Positions 1 through 7,295 of a stretch of 7,295 bases of DNA are shown piece by piece (the first letter of the stretch is position 1; each line of letters begins with the position of its first letter). The stretch lies in the IMG/VR virus record IMGVR_UViG_2713896781_000013. The stretch is one strand, 5' to 3'. Origin of the DNA: a virus. Lineage: Duplodnaviria; Heunggongvirae; Uroviricota; Caudoviricetes. Both the position numbers and the translations under genes were made by a program. The notes below the pieces were generated by a model, which was not told where the DNA came from, searched no databases, and worked only from the letters and a program-made list of their open reading frames with translations.

Positions 1-389
1 ACGGGCATACACCCGGCGGCGGACCACCGTGGCCCCCACCAGGCTCTGCAGGTCCTCCGCCATTCCGGTGACCAGACCGAACAGATTGGACACCGTCAGT
101 GACGGGCGGGCACTGCTGCCCTTCCCGTTCATCTCAAAACCGCTGCCGTCAATCGGGTATGCCTGATATTCCCGCCCCTGCCAGGTAACCGCCTCCCCTT
201 TTTCATTCAGCTCATTGCAGAAAAAATACCGCTCNNNNNNNNNNNNNNNNNNNNNNNNNNNNNNNNNNNNNNNNNNNNNNNNNNCCGCTCACCACCCTGT
301 ACCGTCAGGTCGATTTCCCAGAGTACCACCCGCGGTGACTGCTCTGACTTAACCGACTCGTTCAGACTTTCTTCGCGAATATCCTGCAT
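1..389 (-). CDS. L: Minor tail protein L (lambda gpL family); 3' end lies beyond the window start and the reading frame is interrupted by a 50-nt N run (235..284)
   Basis: ATG at 389..387. N-terminus MQDIREESLNESVKSEQSPRVVLWEIDLTVQGGER runs up to the N gap. My translation of the minus strand from 234 to 1 gives ERYFFCNELNEKGEAVTWQGREYQAYPIDGSGFEMNGKGSSARPSLTVSNLFGLVTGMAEDLQSLVGATVVRRRVYAR with no stop. Both parts are colinear with lambda gpL as I recall it (MQDIRQETLNE...VVLWEIDLT...GGERYFFCNEQNEKGEPVTWQGRQYQPYPI...TLTVSNLYGMVTGMAEDMQSLVGGTVVRRKVYAR). The start codon overlaps the stop of M by one base (TGATG). Confidence 0.85.
235..284. other. Run of 50 N (assembly gap or masked bases) inside gene L, flanked by the direct repeat CCGCTC (229..234 and 285..290)
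   Basis: Seen directly in the sequence. Deleting the N run plus one copy of the 6-bp repeat restores a continuous L frame (...TVQGGERYFFCNE...). Confidence 0.9.
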
Positions 390-730
390 CAGTTCACCAC
401 CTGCTCAATCGTACAACTGAAATCACTGTACCTGGCGTTATCTGTGACGCTCCACTCCCGGCACACCACCCTCACCGTCCGGTTATGTTTCGGCGGTCGC
501 CACAAAAAGGCACGGTAACCACCATGCCAGGATAAAAATTCATCCAGCCAGCGCCGGGTTGACTCATCCGTCACCCGGAACACCGCCTGAAACGTCTTCA
601 GTTGAGGATTCAGCCCTGTGGGGCGGCGCTGTTCATAACCGTCACCAAACCGCACCCTCACCACCGACGGCTTCTCACTCACCTGCATCCCTTCACGCGG
701 GACCAGATGCAGCGTTTTTATCTCAGCCAC
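389..730 (-). CDS. M: Minor tail protein M (lambda gpM family)
   Basis: 113-aa ORF MAEIKTLHLVPREGMQVSEKPSVVRVRFGDGYEQRRPTGLNPQLKTF...FLWRPPKHNRTVRVVCREWSV...EQVVN, matching the lambda gpM pattern as recalled (VRFGDGY, LNANLKT, HGG, FLWTPP, EQVVN C-terminus). Start is GTG at 730..728 with GGAGGA (743..738) 7 nt upstream; it overlaps the 3' end of H by 8 nt. Stop TGA at 391..389. Confidence 0.9.
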   Translation of the reverse strand: MAEIKTLHLVPREGMQVSEKPSVVRVRFGDGYEQRRPTGLNPQLKTFQAVFRVTDESTRRWLDEFLSWHGGYRAFLWRPPKHNRTVRVVCREWSVTDNARYSDFSCTIEQVVN

Positions 731-3700
731 TCAGCATTCCTCCGTCACGTCGCATGGACAGCATCACCGCCTGCACCCGCTGGTCAATCAGCTGCACAAG
801 GCTGCCCGCAGCTTCCGGCCCTATCTGTCCGTTAGCCCCGTCATTCTGAATGGCGATGTGGTAGACCGGGGAATACACCAGACCAGCACTGCCGTTCATA
901 CTGCCCACCGCGCGTACGCCCAGCGAGCCATCCGCCGCCCGGGTCAGGGGCATAATGGCTTCAGGTCCGGCTTCCCCCATCAGCCCGGCCCCTTTTGCAA
1001 ACGCAAAGTACGTGGGCGTGTCCACAATGCTGTTGCTGTACGCGCTCAGGTTTGCCGAGGTATACACGCCGCCTTTTGCATTGGCCACCGCACCGCCCAG
1101 CCAGTCACCAATGCTGCCGAGAAATCCTCCTGCACCGGACATACTGTTTGCCGCCGTCTTGATCCCGTTGACAATCGCGGCATTCATAAGAACTTTTGAT
1201 ATTTCCTGCAGCACTGATGAGGCCCAGCTGCGCCATTCCACTTTATTTCCGTTCAGCATCTCCGTGATGTTATTCACCATCCCTGAGATACCCTCCGTCG
1301 CAAGCTGTGCTGCCTGTGAGGCGTAATCGGACGCATTATCCACCCAGTTACTGAATCCCTCCTGCAGCCCTTTCTGCCAGTCCGCACGCTGCGCATCCGA
1401 TTCGGCATAAAAAGTTTCCTGGTCTTTAAGGCGTTCACTCAGATACTGCGCGTTCTGTGCCAGAGCCTGTCTGTAAAAATCCTCACTGATATCCCCGCTC
1501 TGATACTGAGACTGAAGGTCCGCATCCTTCTGGCGGAAGCTGTCGCGGATCTGCTGCAACTCCCGCATGCGTTCTCTGGCTCGCTCCCCCTGCCCGTACC
1601 CCAGCAGTTCAGCATCATTCGACGCACGCGCAGCCGCATTCTCATTCTTCAGTGTCTCTTCCCGGGATCGCAACTGTTCCCGGATTTTTTGCTGGTCAAT
1701 CAGGGTCGCGTTACGCAGCAGTTCCTGCTTCTGCATCTCCGTCAGGGTTTTCAGTTCACCCAGCGCTGTCTGGTATTTCAGCTTCGCCAGCTCTGTATTC
1801 TGCCCCACCAGTGCCAGTTGCTCTTTCTGCTGCTTCAGCAGCCGGGAAAAACTGTCTTCCGCTTTTTCCGTCTCTGATTTTCCACCCCGGGATTTGGGTT
1901 TATTCGCCTCGTTATTGCGCCAGGCTTCCAGGGCATTACTGATATAACGTTGTCTCGCCTCCTGATACGGATCACCCACAAAACCGAGGTCATCCGCCGC
2001 ATACCCCAGTCGGACACGCTCTTTTTCTTCCCCTTTCAGTCTGGACAGGGCCAGCTCACGCTCTGTTTTTGTCAGGGCACTCTGCTGTTTATCATCCAGG
2101 GTGGCCTGCGGCAGCCGTAACGGTACATTCACCAGTCCCTGACGCTGCTGAAGCAGTTCATTCCCCAGCCCCAGCAGACGGTTGAATTCCGTATGCTGAC
2201 CGTTCATAACCAGCATGGACTGGTACACCTTATTCTGCTCTGCCGCCTGCTGACGAATTAACGCCACACGACGGTCTTCCAGCCCGGCAAGCACATCCTG
2301 AATGGACTGCGCTTTTTCCTGCATCTGTGCCAGACGGGACTGCTCAACGGCAAGCTGCTCTGTTGCCTGAGAAAGCCCTTCCGTTACGGTCTTCACCGAT
2401 GTCAGATGGTTTATCATGAATCCGTCACCGGTCGTCCAGCCCGGGTTCGCCAGAACATACTGATATCCTGCGATTTTTTCCTGCAGGGATTTCACCCGAC
2501 TGGCCTGTTCATCAATCAGCCGGTTCTGCTCTGTCAGCGCCGCCCGTGTTCGTCCTTCATTATCTGAGGCTTCAGGCAAAGACATTGACGGCGTTTTATG
2601 CGCGATTTCATCTATCGTCAGTGCATACTGGCGCGCAGACTCCCTGGCCTGCTCCTGATTCTGGTACAGCGTGTACCATGCTGCAGCCCCCAGCATCACC
2701 AGTCCGGGTACGCCACCAACCAGCCCCAGCGCACCGCTCATCAGACGTGAGCCCACCGCCGTTGTACTGTTCAGCGCATTCTGGGCGGCGCTTCTGGCAG
2801 CAATATTTCTGTTCAGGCGTTCCTGTGTGGCCGCCAGACGGGCCTCTGCAGCAATCTGCATCTCCGTCCCGCGGGCTGCCGCCACGGCCTGCTGAGCACG
2901 GTACACGGCTGCCCTTGCCCGCGCCGTGGCAATCTGCGTTCCCCTGAACTGTGCTTCCGCCAGTGCAACTTCATTACGTGCAGCCGTCACAAGTCCTGCC
3001 GTGGCAGACATCGCTCCGGAGGCCATATTGCCAAAGTACCGGGCAACCCCGACGGCAACCAGCGCGCCCACGGCTGTTGCCACATTATCAATCTGTCCGG
3101 CAACACCGTTCAGCATGCCGGAGAGCGTTTTTGTCACCCCGCTGGCCTCATTCGCACCGCCCACCCAGGCCATAAAGGCGTTTTCCACCTTCGTGATACT
3201 ACTGGAAACCGTTTCCGGCATGGCCGCATATTCATCACGTAATATCCCCAGCTGGCTGATTAACGCGGGGACCACTTTATCCGCTGTCAGTTTTCCGTCA
3301 TCCGCCATTGCCTTCAGATCTTTACGGGCCACGCCCATACCCGCAGCCAGTGCACGTACGATCCGGTCACCACTTTCATTGACCGAATTAAACTCCTCAC
3401 CACGCAATACACCCTGCGCCAGCGCCTGACTGAACTGGGTGATCACCGAGCCCGCCTCTGCCGTACTGGCACCGGAGATTTTCAGCCCTGTCGAAATGGC
3501 CTCCGTCACCTTCAGCACATCATCAGCACTGTAACCATATTCACGCATCGAGGCAGCCGAACGGGCAAACAGGGCCGCATTATCCGAAAATGCGGTGCCT
3601 GTCCGCTGGCTGATATCCATCAGCACTTTCTGTGATGACGCAAATTCATCCGATGACTGCGACGCCTGTTTCAGACGGGCATTCACGGAGCTCCATTCAT

Positions 3701-3965
3701 CCGCCAGCGAAATCAGGTGTCCGGTGGCAAAGGCACCGGCAAACGCACCGGTCATTCCGACAGCCGAAGCGCGGATTTCCGTCAACTGGCTGTGCAGCTC
3801 AGCCAGAGCCCGGCGCTGCTCCCTGGCTGCCGCAGCAGCCTGACGTCCGCCATTCTGCAGGGTCCGGTAATATTCACTGCCCATACGGGACGCCCGCTGG
3901 ATCTCCGACTGGAATGACTGTGAATTTGCCGAAATTTTGATAATCAGTTCACGTAACGTCGCCAT
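723..3965 (-). CDS. H: Tail tape measure protein (lambda gpH family), 1080 aa
   Basis: Single 3243-nt ORF. Ala/Gly-rich N-terminal tape-measure-type region, a long Gln/Glu/Arg/Leu-rich coiled-coil-like centre, then a hydrophobic Gly/Ala stretch and a C-terminus (...NDGANGQIGPEAAGS...MRRDGGMLSG) resembling the lambda gpH C-terminus as recalled (NNDGTNGQIGPAAL...MRDGGLFSGGGR). Sits directly downstream of the G/G-T chaperone pair. ATG at 3965..3963 preceded by GGAGAAAGG. Confidence 0.95.
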   Translation of the reverse strand: MATLRELIIKISANSQSFQSEIQRASRMGSEYYRTLQNGGRQAAAAAREQRRALAELHSQLTEIRASAVGMTGAFAGAFATGHLISLADEWSSVNARLKQASQSSDEFASSQKVLMDISQRTGTAFSDNAALFARSAASMREYGYSADDVLKVTEAISTGLKISGASTAEAGSVITQFSQALAQGVLRGEEFNSVNESGDRIVRALAAGMGVARKDLKAMADDGKLTADKVVPALISQLGILRDEYAAMPETVSSSITKVENAFMAWVGGANEASGVTKTLSGMLNGVAGQIDNVATAVGALVAVGVARYFGNMASGAMSATAGLVTAARNEVALAEAQFRGTQIATARARAAVYRAQQAVAAARGTEMQIAAEARLAATQERLNRNIAARSAAQNALNSTTAVGSRLMSGALGLVGGVPGLVMLGAAAWYTLYQNQEQARESARQYALTIDEIAHKTPSMSLPEASDNEGRTRAALTEQNRLIDEQASRVKSLQEKIAGYQYVLANPGWTTGDGFMINHLTSVKTVTEGLSQATEQLAVEQSRLAQMQEKAQSIQDVLAGLEDRRVALIRQQAAEQNKVYQSMLVMNGQHTEFNRLLGLGNELLQQRQGLVNVPLRLPQATLDDKQQSALTKTERELALSRLKGEEKERVRLGYAADDLGFVGDPYQEARQRYISNALEAWRNNEANKPKSRGGKSETEKAEDSFSRLLKQQKEQLALVGQNTELAKLKYQTALGELKTLTEMQKQELLRNATLIDQQKIREQLRSREETLKNENAAARASNDAELLGYGQGERARERMRELQQIRDSFRQKDADLQSQYQSGDISEDFYRQALAQNAQYLSERLKDQETFYAESDAQRADWQKGLQEGFSNWVDNASDYASQAAQLATEGISGMVNNITEMLNGNKVEWRSWASSVLQEISKVLMNAAIVNGIKTAANSMSGAGGFLGSIGDWLGGAVANAKGGVYTSANLSAYSNSIVDTPTYFAFAKGAGLMGEAGPEAIMPLTRAADGSLGVRAVGSMNGSAGLVYSPVYHIAIQNDGANGQIGPEAAGSLVQLIDQRVQAVMLSMRRDGGMLSG

Positions 3966-3981
3966 TCACCTTTCTCCGGGC

Positions 3982-4007
3982 AAAAAAAACCTGCCACAGC
4001 AGGTTTT
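3982..4007 (-). terminator. Hairpin followed by a T8 tract in the T-H intergenic spacer (possible weak intrinsic terminator or RNA-stabilising hairpin)
   Basis: Minus strand reads AAAACCTGC-TGTG-GCAGG-TTTTTTTT: a 5-bp GC-rich stem (3990..3994 with 3999..4003), a 4-nt loop, possible A-U extension, then eight U. It lies between the T stop (4019..4017) and the H start (3965). Confidence 0.3.
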
Positions 4008-4016
4008 CATCATTAT

Positions 4017-4696
4017 TTATGACATTGCTGCAAGGCTCAGCGCGTCTTCCAGCGCCGCAAACGGATCCACCTCCGGCTTATCCTCATCCTCGCCCCAGCA
4101 GAGCATGGCGTCCTTCAGTGCAACATTCATCCCCTGTGCCCCGAAAACCGCTTTCACGATCTGCGCATTACGGATATCCCCGCGCTCATCACCCAGCGGG
4201 GATACCCTGTCGAACTCCATCCACATCATCGCCTCGCTCGCACTCAGGCTGTGCCGCAGTTCGGATAAGGTGCGCCCCAGACGGAGCGCAAGTCGCATCA
4301 GAAAGCGAATTTCCGGGCGGGCTACTTTTTTCTGGCCGACTCTGCATCAGCGATCAGTTCCAGTGCCTGACGCAGCAACCGGGCATGTACCGGACCATAG
4401 ACGGCCAGCACCTGCTCACGGTCGTCCGGAGTGAACACCCGTTGCAGGTCAGTATCACACAGGACATCGCAGAACAGCGTCACATCCGCTTCCAGGTTAC
4501 GGCGGGTTTTCGCCACCACCGACAGGGTATCGTCATCCTCTCCATCACCATTGAGCACTTCCTGCCACAGATACCAGGCCTCTGCCGAAGGCTCCCGCAG
4601 CACCACGCTGACATTTCTCCATTCCGGCACCTTCACCGTTTTATGACGGAACCCCGACAGTCTGGCCAGCGCCAGTGTTTTCAGATCTTTTGCCAT
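4017..4696 (-). CDS. T: Tail assembly chaperone G-T fusion made by a programmed -1 ribosomal frameshift at 4331..4325 (about 226 aa); the T-frame portion is 4017..4328
   Basis: The T-frame ORF (93 aa from its first Met, MRLALRLGRTLSELRHSLSASEAMMWMEF...) is in the -1 frame relative to G and is open across the slippery site (CRVGQKKVARPEIRFLMRL...). The T portion resembles lambda gpT as recalled (LRHRMSAAELTEWMAF). Synteny G, T, H is conserved. Confidence 0.8.
4322..4696 (-). CDS. G: Tail assembly chaperone G (zero-frame product, 124 aa)
   Basis: ORF MAKDLKTLALARLSGFRHKTVKVPEW...ADAESARKK with an acidic DGEDDD stretch, lying between the major tail gene and the tape measure gene. It ends with AGA AAA AAG TAG, so the slippery heptamer sits immediately before the stop. 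ATG at 4696..4694 is 5 nt after the V stop. Confidence 0.85.
   Translation of the reverse strand: MAKDLKTLALARLSGFRHKTVKVPEWRNVSVVLREPSAEAWYLWQEVLNGDGEDDDTLSVVAKTRRNLEADVTLFCDVLCDTDLQRVFTPDDREQVLAVYGPVHARLLRQALELIADAESARKK
4325..4331 (-). other. Programmed -1 frameshift slippery heptamer A AAA AAG, immediately followed by the G stop codon TAG (4324..4322)
   Basis: Plus-strand CTTTTTT at 4325..4331 is A_AAA_AAG on the minus strand, in the G zero frame (AAA 4330..4328, AAG 4327..4325). A -1 slip reads AAA AAA GTA GCC CGC CCG GAA ATT CGC TTT CTG ATG, which joins the T frame. Confidence 0.8.
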
Positions 4697-4701
4697 AAGC
4701 C

Positions 4702-5418
4702 TTATCCGCCCGCACCATTAACCGTTACCGTACACGCATCAGAGGTAATGCTCTGCGGCTGTTCTGCAGAATCCATTACCATGCAGGTATAAGCCCCCTT
4801 ATCACCTGACTGCGCATTGGCTTTACTGAAAGTGTCAGTAGTCTGTCCCTCGACCGGCTGACCATCCTTCTTCCAGGCGTATTTATAAGGCGGCGTTCCC
4901 CCGTTGACACTGACTGACATTGTCAGCAGCGCACCGGTATTCACGGTAAGTGTCTTCTCCGGATTTTTCACAAACGCCAGCGGTACCACATAGGACACCG
5001 GTTTACCCTTCAGGCGAAGTGAAAACGTTGCAGCCACCACGCCGTTGGTACCGGATGACCAGGTGTGCTGACGCACTTCCGCCAGGAACTTAAAGCCCTT
5101 ACCGGACGGAAACTGCACCTTAAACGCATACACCGTGTCATTGTCATAGGCATCACGCAGGGCGTTCTGGGCCTGATTCAGATAAAAATTACCCGACATG
5201 GAAATCTCGGACGACGCCCCCAGACCGTTGATGTTCTCCTGCTCTGTGGAGCAGAGCGTGGTCACATCAATATCCTGTTTCTGCCCGGCGGTGAACTGGA
5301 CTTCCTTGATGGCGCAGTCCAGGCGCAGATATTCCGCCTTATCCATAGTTTCAGCAGTCGCCGGGGCAGATGAAATCATCACCTGCGTCAGCTGTGAGCG
5401 TTCATACAAAGCAGACAT
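4702..5418 (-). CDS. V: Major tail (tube) protein, lambda gpV-like, with a C-terminal Ig-like domain (238 aa)
   Basis: Start assigned to the ATG at 5418..5416 (Met47 of the 284-aa track ORF) because AGGAGG lies at 5428..5423 and the upstream part of the open frame overlaps the previous gene and the intergenic hairpin. Protein MSALYERSQLTQ...VYAFKVQFPSGKG... resembles the lambda gpV core as recalled (AYKIRFPNG). The C-terminal ~85 aa carry Ig-type motifs (PPYKYAWKKDGQPV, GDKGAYTCMV). Position immediately upstream of G/G-T fits the tail tube gene. Confidence 0.85.
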   Translation of the reverse strand: MSALYERSQLTQVMISSAPATAETMDKAEYLRLDCAIKEVQFTAGQKQDIDVTTLCSTEQENINGLGASSEISMSGNFYLNQAQNALRDAYDNDTVYAFKVQFPSGKGFKFLAEVRQHTWSSGTNGVVAATFSLRLKGKPVSYVVPLAFVKNPEKTLTVNTGALLTMSVSVNGGTPPYKYAWKKDGQPVEGQTTDTFSKANAQSGDKGAYTCMVMDSAEQPQSITSDACTVTVNGAGG

Positions 5419-6630: not shown

Positions 6631-6957
6631 TCATAACACCGTCGGACAACGCAAATCGTAAATCAGCACGGACACAGAAAACGGCAGCTCCCCCTGAATC
6701 AGTTCTTCCCGCTCCGCAAGATCCGGATTCCGGTACAGCATCCCGGTCAGTCGCATGGCAGCCCCCTTCATCCGGGTTAATGCCTCGCCCGGGATCAGTT
6801 CACCGTCCTCACGAATCACCTTATCCCGGCTGCCCTGAATGTAGGCCAGCAGCACGGCGGTAGCCTGACGAACCTTGTCCATCAGCATGTCATCATCCGC
6901 GTCATGGTCGACACGCAGATGTGCCTTGATCTCTTCCAGTGTCAGTAATGCCGTCAT
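6631..6957 (-). CDS. Head-tail connector protein (HK97 gp6-like, Phage_connect_1-type), 108 aa
   Basis: ORF MTALLTLEEIKAHLRVDHDADDDMLMDKVRQATAVLLAYIQG... carries the N-terminal signature of gp6-like connector proteins (LTLEE-x-KAHLR-x-DHD-x-DD then a helical region). AGGAGG at 6969..6964 is 6 nt upstream of the ATG at 6957. ATGA overlap with the upstream ORF. Confidence 0.75.
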   Translation of the reverse strand: MTALLTLEEIKAHLRVDHDADDDMLMDKVRQATAVLLAYIQGSRDKVIREDGELIPGEALTRMKGAAMRLTGMLYRNPDLAEREELIQGELPFSVSVLIYDLRCPTVL

Positions 6958-7295
6958 TTTCCGCCTCCTGCATCCCGTCCACGTTTGGCAGCCAGGGTCC
7001 AGCCTGATGAATGAGCTTCTCCGGGTTTATCACCGGTCATACTGTTGCAGTGCCACAGCGAGCCCCCCCACGTCACCGTATCACCGGGGTGGTAGGTTTC
7101 ACCGGCTCTGAACACACCGCGGTAGAGCATCACCGGCAGGGAAAATGTTTTTTCCGTACGCTGGCCACTGCTCTGCCGGACCACCACAGTGAACGACCGT
7201 TCGCCGGTCATGCTGACGTCAATATCGGCCACCCCGTCAACCAGGCATTCCCATCCCCGCATCCCGTGCGTTTTTTCATACGCCCGCCAGAGTCC
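6954..7295 (-). CDS. 5'-truncated ORF of unknown function (C-terminal 113 codons visible); possibly the end of a capsid-module gene
   Basis: The frame is open from the window end (7295) down to TGA at 6956..6954. My translation upstream of the track ORF's first Met (7262) gives GLWRAYEKTHG with no stop, so the gene starts outside the window. I do not recognise the sequence ...GETYHPGDTVTWGGSLWHCNSMTGDKPGEAHSSGWTLAAKRGRDAGGGK. It is co-directional and translationally coupled (ATGA) with the gp6-like gene. Confidence 0.5.
   Translation of the reverse strand, partial: GLWRAYEKTHGMRGWECLVDGVADIDVSMTGERSFTVVVRQSSGQRTEKTFSLPVMLYRGVFRAGETYHPGDTVTWGGSLWHCNSMTGDKPGEAHSSGWTLAAKRGRDAGGGK

Follow-up and report, generated by a model that had tools for sequence, protein, structure and literature searches.

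[quoted passage not shown]

Background

In the dnaX gene of Escherichia coli, which yields tau and gamma, the frameshift site is flanked by an upstream Shine-Dalgarno (SD)-like element and a downstream stem-loop, and frameshifting reaches about 50%. The shift site of the G and T genes of phage lambda is reportedly G_GGA_AAG, a result attributed to Levin et al. 1993. The lambda G and G-T proteins occur in a ratio of about 30:1 according to a review (PMC5009743). Both bind the tape measure protein, the T part binds the major tail protein, and both proteins are absent from virions (PMC5009743). The heptamer A_AAA_AAG is among the most shift-prone in E. coli, where AAA is a better partner than AAG for the single tRNA-Lys, and G_GGA_AAG is also named as shift-prone (PMC5009743).

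The tail assembly chaperones of HK97 and its relatives form another described group. In the HK97 record (NC_002167), gp13 and gp14 are connected by an annotated -1 join, with the note 'translated due to a -1 frameshift'. Antonov et al. 2013 (NAR 41:6514, PMC3711429) sorted genes with predicted frameshifts into clusters and, for use in E. coli, cloned 40 cassettes into a reporter between its GST and MBP parts. One of their clusters, 'phage tail assembly chaperone' (Phage_TAC), has 41 members resembling an HK97 protein, and its cassettes gave 6% and 7% frameshifting (PMC3711429).

The DNA considered here is a 7,295-nucleotide stretch of the IMG/VR virus record IMGVR_UViG_2713896781_000013, hereafter called the window, and belongs to a lambdoid prophage of Shiga-toxin-producing E. 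coli. The reading preferred here, with a probability of about 0.93, is that the region on its minus strand between positions 4696 and 4017 encodes the two tail assembly chaperones of an HK97-like module, in which G-T is produced by a -1 slip on A_AAA_AAG.

Gene neighbourhood and protein families

Along the minus strand, the major tail gene (5418..4702) is followed by G (4696..4322), by the T frame running to 4017 and by the tape measure gene (3965..723). The upstream neighbour (4702..5418, minus strand, 717 nt) is the gene of the major tail (tube) protein with a C-terminal Ig-like domain, as identified by Pfam Phage_TTP_11/Phage_tail_2 together with Ig_2/Ig_3/I-set. It is named 'major tail subunit' in RefSeq, and a strong SD sequence precedes its ATG at 5418. 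The downstream neighbour (723..3965, minus strand) encodes a tape measure protein of 1080 aa carrying Pfam Phage_HK97_TLTM, TMP_3 and Tape_meas_lam_C, called 'phage tail tape measure protein' in RefSeq. Genes for a head-tail connector, a head completion protein, an HK97 gp10-like protein and a gp17-type tail completion protein lie further upstream, and a lambda M-like minor tail protein is encoded beyond the tape measure gene. These neighbours make up a standard HK97-like tail module, in which the major tail protein is the presumed partner of the T domain and the tape measure protein the presumed substrate of G and G-T. A terminator-like hairpin alone stands between GT and the tape measure gene.

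The zero-frame product of gene G, named 'phage tail assembly chaperone' in RefSeq, belongs to Pfam PF06222 (Phage_TAC_1), which it matches with residues 1-124 on profile positions 1-124 (E 8.4e-61, 203.8 bits for a cutoff of 25); no other chaperone family was found for G in the Pfam scan. The G part also matches PDB 2ob9, the 'Tail assembly chaperone' of HK97, over residues 1-127 (E 1.8e-46). The product of the -1 frame is assigned to Pfam PF06223 (Phage_tail_T), with residues 152-221 of the fusion on profile positions 1-70 of 73 (E 2.7e-18, 66.6 bits for a cutoff of 25.9). The NCBIfam scan of the 226-aa fusion matched no family. PHROG 14766, a profile of 224 positions, spans fusion residues 1-223 in one stretch (E 9.2e-86), and fused G-T proteins of relatives are therefore already included in phage protein sets.

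Reading frames and shift site

Gene G (4322..4696, minus strand) starts at ATG 4696..4694 and, according to the list of open reading frames and its translation, encodes 124 aa with the C-terminus SARKK. Its last codons, read on the minus strand, are AGA (4333-4331), AAA (4330-4328), AAG (4327-4325) and the stop codon TAG (4324-4322). The heptamer A_AAA_AAG (4325..4331, minus strand), set in the G zero frame, can thus be read directly from the sequence, with the P-site codon AAA at 4330..4328 and the A-site codon AAG at 4327..4325, and the TAG (4322..4324, minus strand) stands directly 3' of it. It is the sole heptamer of the form X_XXY_YYZ in the G frame. This arrangement of the G end with the heptamer set against the stop codon is as the initial annotation had described it.

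The -1 frame is closed by TGA at 4349..4347, then open from 4346 to TAA 4019..4017, and ends 101 codons past the G stop. The slip must fall within the 22-nt overlap (4325..4346, minus strand), because only there do both frames run, the -1 frame being already open and the G frame not yet ended. Of the initial statement that the -1 frame is open to 4017 from 7 codons upstream of the heptamer, the first half holds and the second does not: 5 sense codons (15 nt) precede the heptamer, and the distance of 7 codons applies to the first post-shift codon GTA, the frame being open 22 nt before the G stop. After the slip, the T segment (4017..4325, minus strand) is translated from GTA 4325..4323 to the stop TAA 4019..4017 and adds 102 aa, giving a predicted product of the form ...SARKK-VARPEIRFLMRLALRL... 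and a G-T fusion of 226 aa. Translation agrees with the earlier prediction of a G protein of 124 aa and a G-T protein of about 226 aa, and with the predicted junction peptide. In the databases, 'T' is a stand-alone open reading frame of 93 aa (4017..4298, minus strand), starting at ATG 4298..4296 and recorded as a separate CDS.

The heptamer is not exceptionally frequent in the window, which holds 2 for 0.70 expected, a number reached in 27 of 200 shuffles. As this count is not significant alone, the argument rests on position and conservation. Chance is excluded by the Phage_tail_T domain in the -1 frame, by the recurrence of the arrangement in 77 of 80 species-level loci and by the presence of A6 in 105 of 106 contigs.

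Conservation of the arrangement and integrity of the site

A tblastn search of phage records returned relatives down to 35% identity, and those spanning both parts match in two pieces, which indicates a change of frame between the G and T parts. At the homologous place, HK446 and Bcep176 carry, like HK97, an annotated two-piece CDS with a -1 join. Together with the domains and the synteny, these joins fit the view, already taken in the initial annotation, that the site is the conserved tail chaperone frameshift. Phages at 35-68% identity, 13 in all, retain the -1 frame together with a shift site at the corresponding place. The fusions of 12 relatives were rebuilt by slipping at the last A_AAG-type codon of the overlap, and an alignment of 11 sequences was made from the window and 10 relatives, the duplicates HK446 and HK542 being left out. 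In this comparison, the 11 fusions align unbroken over the junction, the HK97 fusion being 61% identical to that of the window. Two residues encoded ahead of the annotated T ATG are conserved, P128 without exception and F132 almost so, which argues that the T frame is read from the junction rather than from the ATG. The annotated T start, M134, is invariant in the same alignment.

At species level (80 loci, one genome per species), T lies in the -1 frame in 77 loci. All 77 have a candidate shift site at the corresponding place, of A_AAG or A_AAC type outside the six loci of HK97 type, and the most frequent is A_AAA_AAG. This heptamer stands directly before TAG or TAA in 31 loci, and in another 15 it is followed by TGA 8-10 codons on. 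A single A_AAG directly before TAA is found in 13 loci, 11 of them with GCA_AAG and 2 with GAA_AAG. The HK97 type, CGG_GAA_AAG with TAA five codons on, accounts for 6 loci, G_GGA_AAG with TAA one codon on for 5, and A_AAA_AAC directly before TGA for 4. The remaining types are a single A_AAG (as G_GAA_AAG) with TAA one codon on, in 2 loci, and G_GGA_AAC with TAA one codon on, in 1 locus. Loci of Enterobacterales, Halomonadaceae and Burkholderiales all retain the -1 arrangement, and in close relatives that differ in the adjacent bases the heptamer and the TAG are unchanged. With a shift site that varies and a position that is fixed, the family could serve as a natural series for the study of unstimulated -1 frameshifting.

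The three exceptions among the 80 loci are single-base indels. In one (L097), an extra A in the run fuses G and T in frame; in another (L139), the run is one A shorter than in the relatives of its clade (A6 vs A7); in the third (L096), the indel is located elsewhere in the gene. A further locus (L089) also has a run one A shorter than its clade relatives (A7 vs A8). Such rare indels in L097, L139 and L089, together with a single IMG/VR contig with A5, are what could be cited in favour of an artefact or of decay, i.e., a homopolymer sequencing error or a frameshifted pseudogene of a once-single G-T gene. The likelihood of such an origin is nevertheless negligible. Indeed, when IMG/VR was scanned with any run length allowed between fixed flanks, A6 was found in 105 of the 106 contigs with the same flanks and A7 in none. 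A homopolymer sequencing error, the possible refutation raised in the initial annotation, is thus excluded, and these counts together with the pattern of 77 of 80 species exclude a pseudogene as well. The region is also near-identical in 1,246 complete E. coli genomes, and the wide taxonomic conservation of the -1 arrangement speaks against decay.

These 1,246 genomes, of 5,426 complete E. coli genomes searched, carry the site region in up to 7 places per genome. A stretch of 901 bases that surrounds the site matches E. coli PPompW and Stx2a prophage records at 100% identity, and its identity to BP-4795 and to many Stx1a/Stx2a/Stx2c phages is 99%. The carriers of this tail module include Shiga-toxin-converting phages of O157:H7 and of other Shiga-toxin-producing E. 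coli.

Published efficiency and the origin of the T product

The initial annotation called this type of site well understood, and rightly so. The very same sequence had already been assayed in the 2013 paper (PMC3711429). The Phage_TAC cassette of Table S2 (fs-gene 15618692) gave 7% +/- 0.79 of -1 frameshifting in E. coli (PMC3711429), and its 75-nt insert is base-for-base identical to positions 4351..4277 of the window, heptamer, TAG and flanks included. The initial description of the site as a slip-prone heptamer of the dnaX type is matched by a direct value, which holds for a 75-nt insert in a GST-MBP reporter rather than for the phage message, and in which ribosomal and transcriptional slippage are not separable. 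A second Phage_TAC insert, of the G_GGA_AAG_CCG_TAA class found in Fraca and HK542, gave 6% +/- 0.61 (PMC3711429).

The addition of one A to the A6 run by RNA polymerase would produce an mRNA for the same 226-aa protein, and the two routes look alike in the published reporter. In the phi467 clade, Pectobacterium and Symbiopectobacterium, where the runs reach A8-A9, such transcriptional slippage could contribute. At the A6 run of the window it has only a slim chance of being the source of G-T. RNA polymerase is described as realigning productively on runs longer than 7 A (PMC3711429), whereas the run is of 6 here, and relatives with G_GGA_AAG, GCA_AAG or GAA_AAG, which have no long homopolymer, keep the arrangement, one of them having given 6%.

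Another reading follows the annotation: G and T would be independent genes, the 93-aa T starting at ATG 4298 with no fusion needed. GenBank and RefSeq records indeed annotate two CDS. The ATG is conserved, M134 being invariant, so a little internal initiation is possible on sequence grounds, and the overlap of this ATG with a second zero-frame stop codon (TGATG, 4300..4296) is a geometry compatible with re-initiation. The 20 nt before ATG 4298, however, pair with the anti-SD sequence at only -3.5 kcal/mol, the weakest value of nine starts tested in the window, the remaining eight ranging from -5.8 to -12.8 kcal/mol. The conservation of P128 and F132 upstream of the ATG argues against a start at that codon, and the -1 relation and the shift site, kept in 77 of 80 species, would not be needed by independent genes. 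A fusion was measured from the identical cassette, and Phage_TAC is not among the clusters listed as showing internal initiation (PMC3711429). With the precedents of HK97 and lambda, these data make two separate genes very improbable, although a shade less so than slippage by the polymerase. The 93-aa open reading frame T is probably not an independent gene, and we infer that free T is absent.

Stimulators and the role of the stop codon

According to the initial annotation, the site has no obvious stem-loop or SD-like stimulator, and searches by folding, anti-SD pairing, covariation and Rfam are in line with this. In the 25 nt located 5' of the heptamer, no upstream SD-like stimulator was found, the best anti-SD duplex reaching only -3.0 kcal/mol; 75% of the 25-nt background windows of the same strand pair at least as well. 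The 60 nt upstream of the heptamer fold no better than shuffled sequences (z -1.04). On the downstream side, no stem-loop is supported in the first 43 nt after the heptamer, which also fold no better than shuffles (z +0.33); z is -2.0 for 63 nt and -0.56 for 103 nt. An Rfam search of the complete window returned no hit at E <= 1.

The value of -2.0 for the 63-nt stretch is due to an 8-bp hairpin (4290..4271) that starts 34 nt 3' of the heptamer and sits on the codons of the conserved LALRLGRT motif. No covariation was detected for it among 70 distinct homologous sequences, in which 65.0% of the cells are paired vs 64.5% in shuffles. This hairpin is truncated in the published 75-nt cassette, whose insert ends inside it, so it is not needed for the 7%. 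Distant from the heptamer, devoid of covariation and cut in the cassette that gave 7%, it was rejected as a stimulator. The site therefore comes down to the heptamer and the stop codon behind it, with neither an SD-like stimulator nor a supported structural one.

The place of the stop codon itself leads to another mechanism, the 'shifty stop', in which the P-site tRNA slips on AAG while TAG awaits RF1, the stop codon acting as the stimulator, instead of tandem slippage during translocation. The concept is established (Weiss et al. 1987, as cited in PMC5009743). Besides the window, where the heptamer abuts the stop, the shift codon is directly followed by a stop codon in 48 of the 77 species-level relatives with T in the -1 frame, and both TAG and TAA are used though the next residue of the T frame is thereby changed. 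For the 13 relatives with a single A_AAG then TAA (GCA_AAG_TAA or GAA_AAG_TAA), the overlaps of which go down to 7 nt, only a one-tRNA slip beside the stop is possible. The lack of any other stimulator, whether SD-like or found by folding, covariation or Rfam, points the same way.

Such a stop-driven slip is nonetheless possible rather than likely in the window. The same heptamer stands 8-10 codons before the stop in 15 relatives, and six relatives of the HK97 type shift 5 codons before it, so adjacency to the stop is not required in the family. The G_GGA_AAG cassette, with its stop one codon off, gave 6% against 7%, which suggests that the stop has no large effect. Moreover, A_AAA_AAG by its own nature slips very readily in E. 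coli (PMC5009743), and the stop may be kept only because it sets the C-terminus of G. The frequency of the adjacent stop and the 13 loci with a single A_AAG argue for some role of the stop codon, although any effect would be modest and not essential. If the stop were a stimulator, the G:G-T ratio, and hence tail assembly, would be tuned by the availability of RF1 and not by mRNA structure.

Proposed mechanism

In the preferred reading, a -1 slip on A_AAA_AAG within an HK97-like chaperone pair, most ribosomes would translate G (124 aa) and end at TAG 4324..4322, and about 7% would slip back one nucleotide on the heptamer at 4331..4325. The single tRNA-Lys would re-pair from AAA-AAG to AAA-AAA, and the slipped ribosomes would read GTA GCC CGC... 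to TAA 4019..4017, yielding the 226-aa G-T. The heptamer would act alone, with no help from a Shine-Dalgarno-like element or an RNA structure. With a shift-prone heptamer and a tRNA-Lys preferring AAA, about 7 of 100 ribosomes would thus enter the -1 frame and make G-T. This would correspond to a G : G-T ratio of roughly 13:1, vs about 30:1 in lambda, the value for the native phage being derived from the reporter.

If the pair works as it does in lambda, the 1080-aa tape measure protein would be coated by G and, through its G part, by G-T. The T domain would serve to recruit the major tail protein, and neither G nor G-T would end in the virion. For the tail to assemble correctly, G-T would have to stay at a fixed, low proportion relative to G. 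These functions of G and G-T are those suggested by the homology of the T domain and by synteny. The lambda mechanism can be extended to the G part by analogy only, as the T domain is the sole part that shares a Pfam family with lambda.

Annotation in public records

In every GenBank or RefSeq record of the prophage that was inspected, G and T are two separate CDS. The exact G and the exact T each occur on at least 1000 contigs of a protein collection of 15 billion sequences, from which the exact 226-aa G-T fusion is absent. The initial remark that automated annotation often splits such pairs therefore applies here. The G/G-T recoding site is a textbook case, already known, with a published efficiency for the exact sequence, and nothing new is added to the biology of the G/G-T paradigm. 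The splitting of G-T into two genes in public annotation is the only remaining gap. The main value lies in annotation: with a ribosomal-slippage join, thousands of records would be put right and a spurious 93-aa 'protein T' would disappear.

Comparison with known systems

The closest described system is the Phage_TAC cassette of Antonov et al. 2013 (PMC3711429), identical in sequence, which was studied as a reporter cassette only and in which the hairpin at +34 is cut off. HK97 gp13/gp14 (NC_002167, PDB 2ob9) is another close system, in which both parts belong to the Pfam families found here and the major tail, G/GT and tape measure genes follow each other in the same order. HK97 differs in that its 49-nt overlap lacks a canonical X_XXY_YYZ heptamer, the sole A_AAG being in CGG_GAA_AAG, five codons before TAA; the fusion would have the same length whether the slip fell at GAA_AAG or at CCC_CCG. 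In HK97, moreover, GT is separated from the tape measure gene by a moron, gp15, where only the terminator-like hairpin is present in the prophage.

The locus resembles the lambda G/G-T genes by a -1 shift near the end of G, a low-level fusion, the Phage_tail_T domain, a position before the tape measure gene and the lack of a strong stimulator. It differs from lambda by its G part, which is of the HK97 gp13 type (Phage_TAC_1) and not of the lambda gpG family, and the efficiency of its site in the reporter is roughly twice that of lambda.

With E. coli dnaX, the site shares the identical heptamer A_AAA_AAG and the same reliance on a single tRNA-Lys. The dnaX site, however, is a stimulated cassette, whereas an upstream SD-like element and a stem-loop 5-9 nt downstream are missing here, and frameshifting is 7% in the reporter. 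Moreover, the shifted frame of dnaX ends quickly and gives a shorter product, whereas it gives a longer one here. The site fits the tailed-phage G/G-T frameshift type of Xu, Hendrix and Duda 2004, as seen from the position of the open reading frames, a -1 overlap with a weak ribosome binding site, a slippery site, its conservation and the fusion obtained in the reporter.

Length of the A run among relatives

The homopolymer of the G/T shift site, A6 in the window, differs by a single base between close relatives at several of the homologous loci. Candidatus Symbiopectobacterium endolongispinus (L097, about 880-920) carries A9 whereas Symbiopectobacterium purcellii has A8, and this longer run joins G and T in a single frame at the DNA level. 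Such an in-frame arrangement could be genuine, the fusion having become fixed as the symbiont degenerates, or it could stem from faulty assembly. Runs shorter by one base are rare and are found in L089, from IMG/VR (A7 versus A8), in Serratia sp. L9 (L139, A6 versus A7) and in one of the 106 same-flank IMG/VR contigs L176-L281, with A5 instead of A6; in all of them, T is moved to the +1 frame with respect to G. Either misassembly of the homopolymer or an inactivating mutation may account for these shorter variants. Runs of eight A, in the form GTT, GCT or GCC followed by AAA AAA AAG and the stop codon, occur in many relatives, among L004 and L079-L095 (both phi467 clade) and among L104, L107-L109 and L111-L115. 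As the run is long enough, transcriptional slippage might take place in these relatives in addition to ribosomal frameshifting.

Relatives without a canonical heptamer

The heptamer is absent from a subgroup of loci in which GCA_AAG is directly followed by TAA (L007, L116-L118, L123-L125, L137, L138, L153, L155 and L163), from Klebsiella, Raoultella, Pantoea, Erwinia and others. The -1 overlap of this subgroup goes down to 7 nt and amounts to 13 nt in several others. Because the overlap is short and no heptamer is present, only a single tRNA-Lys slip beside the stop codon is possible in these loci. The G frame of HK97 itself (L015, 1308-1359), considered alongside HK446 (L005), contains no X_XXY_YYZ heptamer within the 49-nt overlap of HK97. 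The candidate shift sites of HK97 are CGG_GAA_AAG and CAA_CCC_CCG, a slip on either of them giving a fusion of equal length.

A second stop codon in the G frame

On the minus strand of the window, a second zero-frame stop, TGA (4298-4300), lies 8 codons past the G stop codon TAG and shares bases with the annotated T start in the sequence TGATG. Read-through of the TAG would lengthen G by 7 residues only. The TGA equivalent to 4298-4300 is the real G stop in the Serratia and Xenorhabdus relatives, 8 codons past the heptamer, and G also terminates at the corresponding TGA in the Burkholderiales relatives, 10 codons past the heptamer.

Flanking genes

In the major tail protein, the C-terminal third (4702-5000, minus strand) includes an immunoglobulin-like domain matched by Pfam Ig_2, Ig_3 and I-set with E values of 1e-8 to 1e-6. 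The mechanically called ORF for this protein has 284 aa from GTG 5556, whereas the annotated gene encodes 238 aa from ATG 5418, a start preceded by a strong SD.

Upstream of the head-tail connector gene, a 102-aa ORF is found on the minus strand (6954-7262), with a weak, sub-threshold match to the carbohydrate-binding motif CBM_5_12 (20.8 bits for a cutoff of 26.2) as its sole Pfam match. The RM9872 RefSeq record has no CDS annotated in the corresponding stretch, and the gene preceding this stretch in the WGPS2 phage record is labelled 'portal protein'. Elsewhere in the window, a stretch of 50 N (masked or unresolved bases) at 235-284 breaks up the minus-strand ORF 389..207, the translation of which contains a block of X.

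A terminator-like hairpin (3978-4007), AAAACCTGC-TGTG-GCAGGTTTT, followed by further T, separates the T stop (4017) from the tape-measure start (3965) on the minus strand; the scanner gave it in plus-strand orientation only. HK97 and HK446 have a moron and an annotated terminator at the matching position, whereas in the window the hairpin is present there without the moron.
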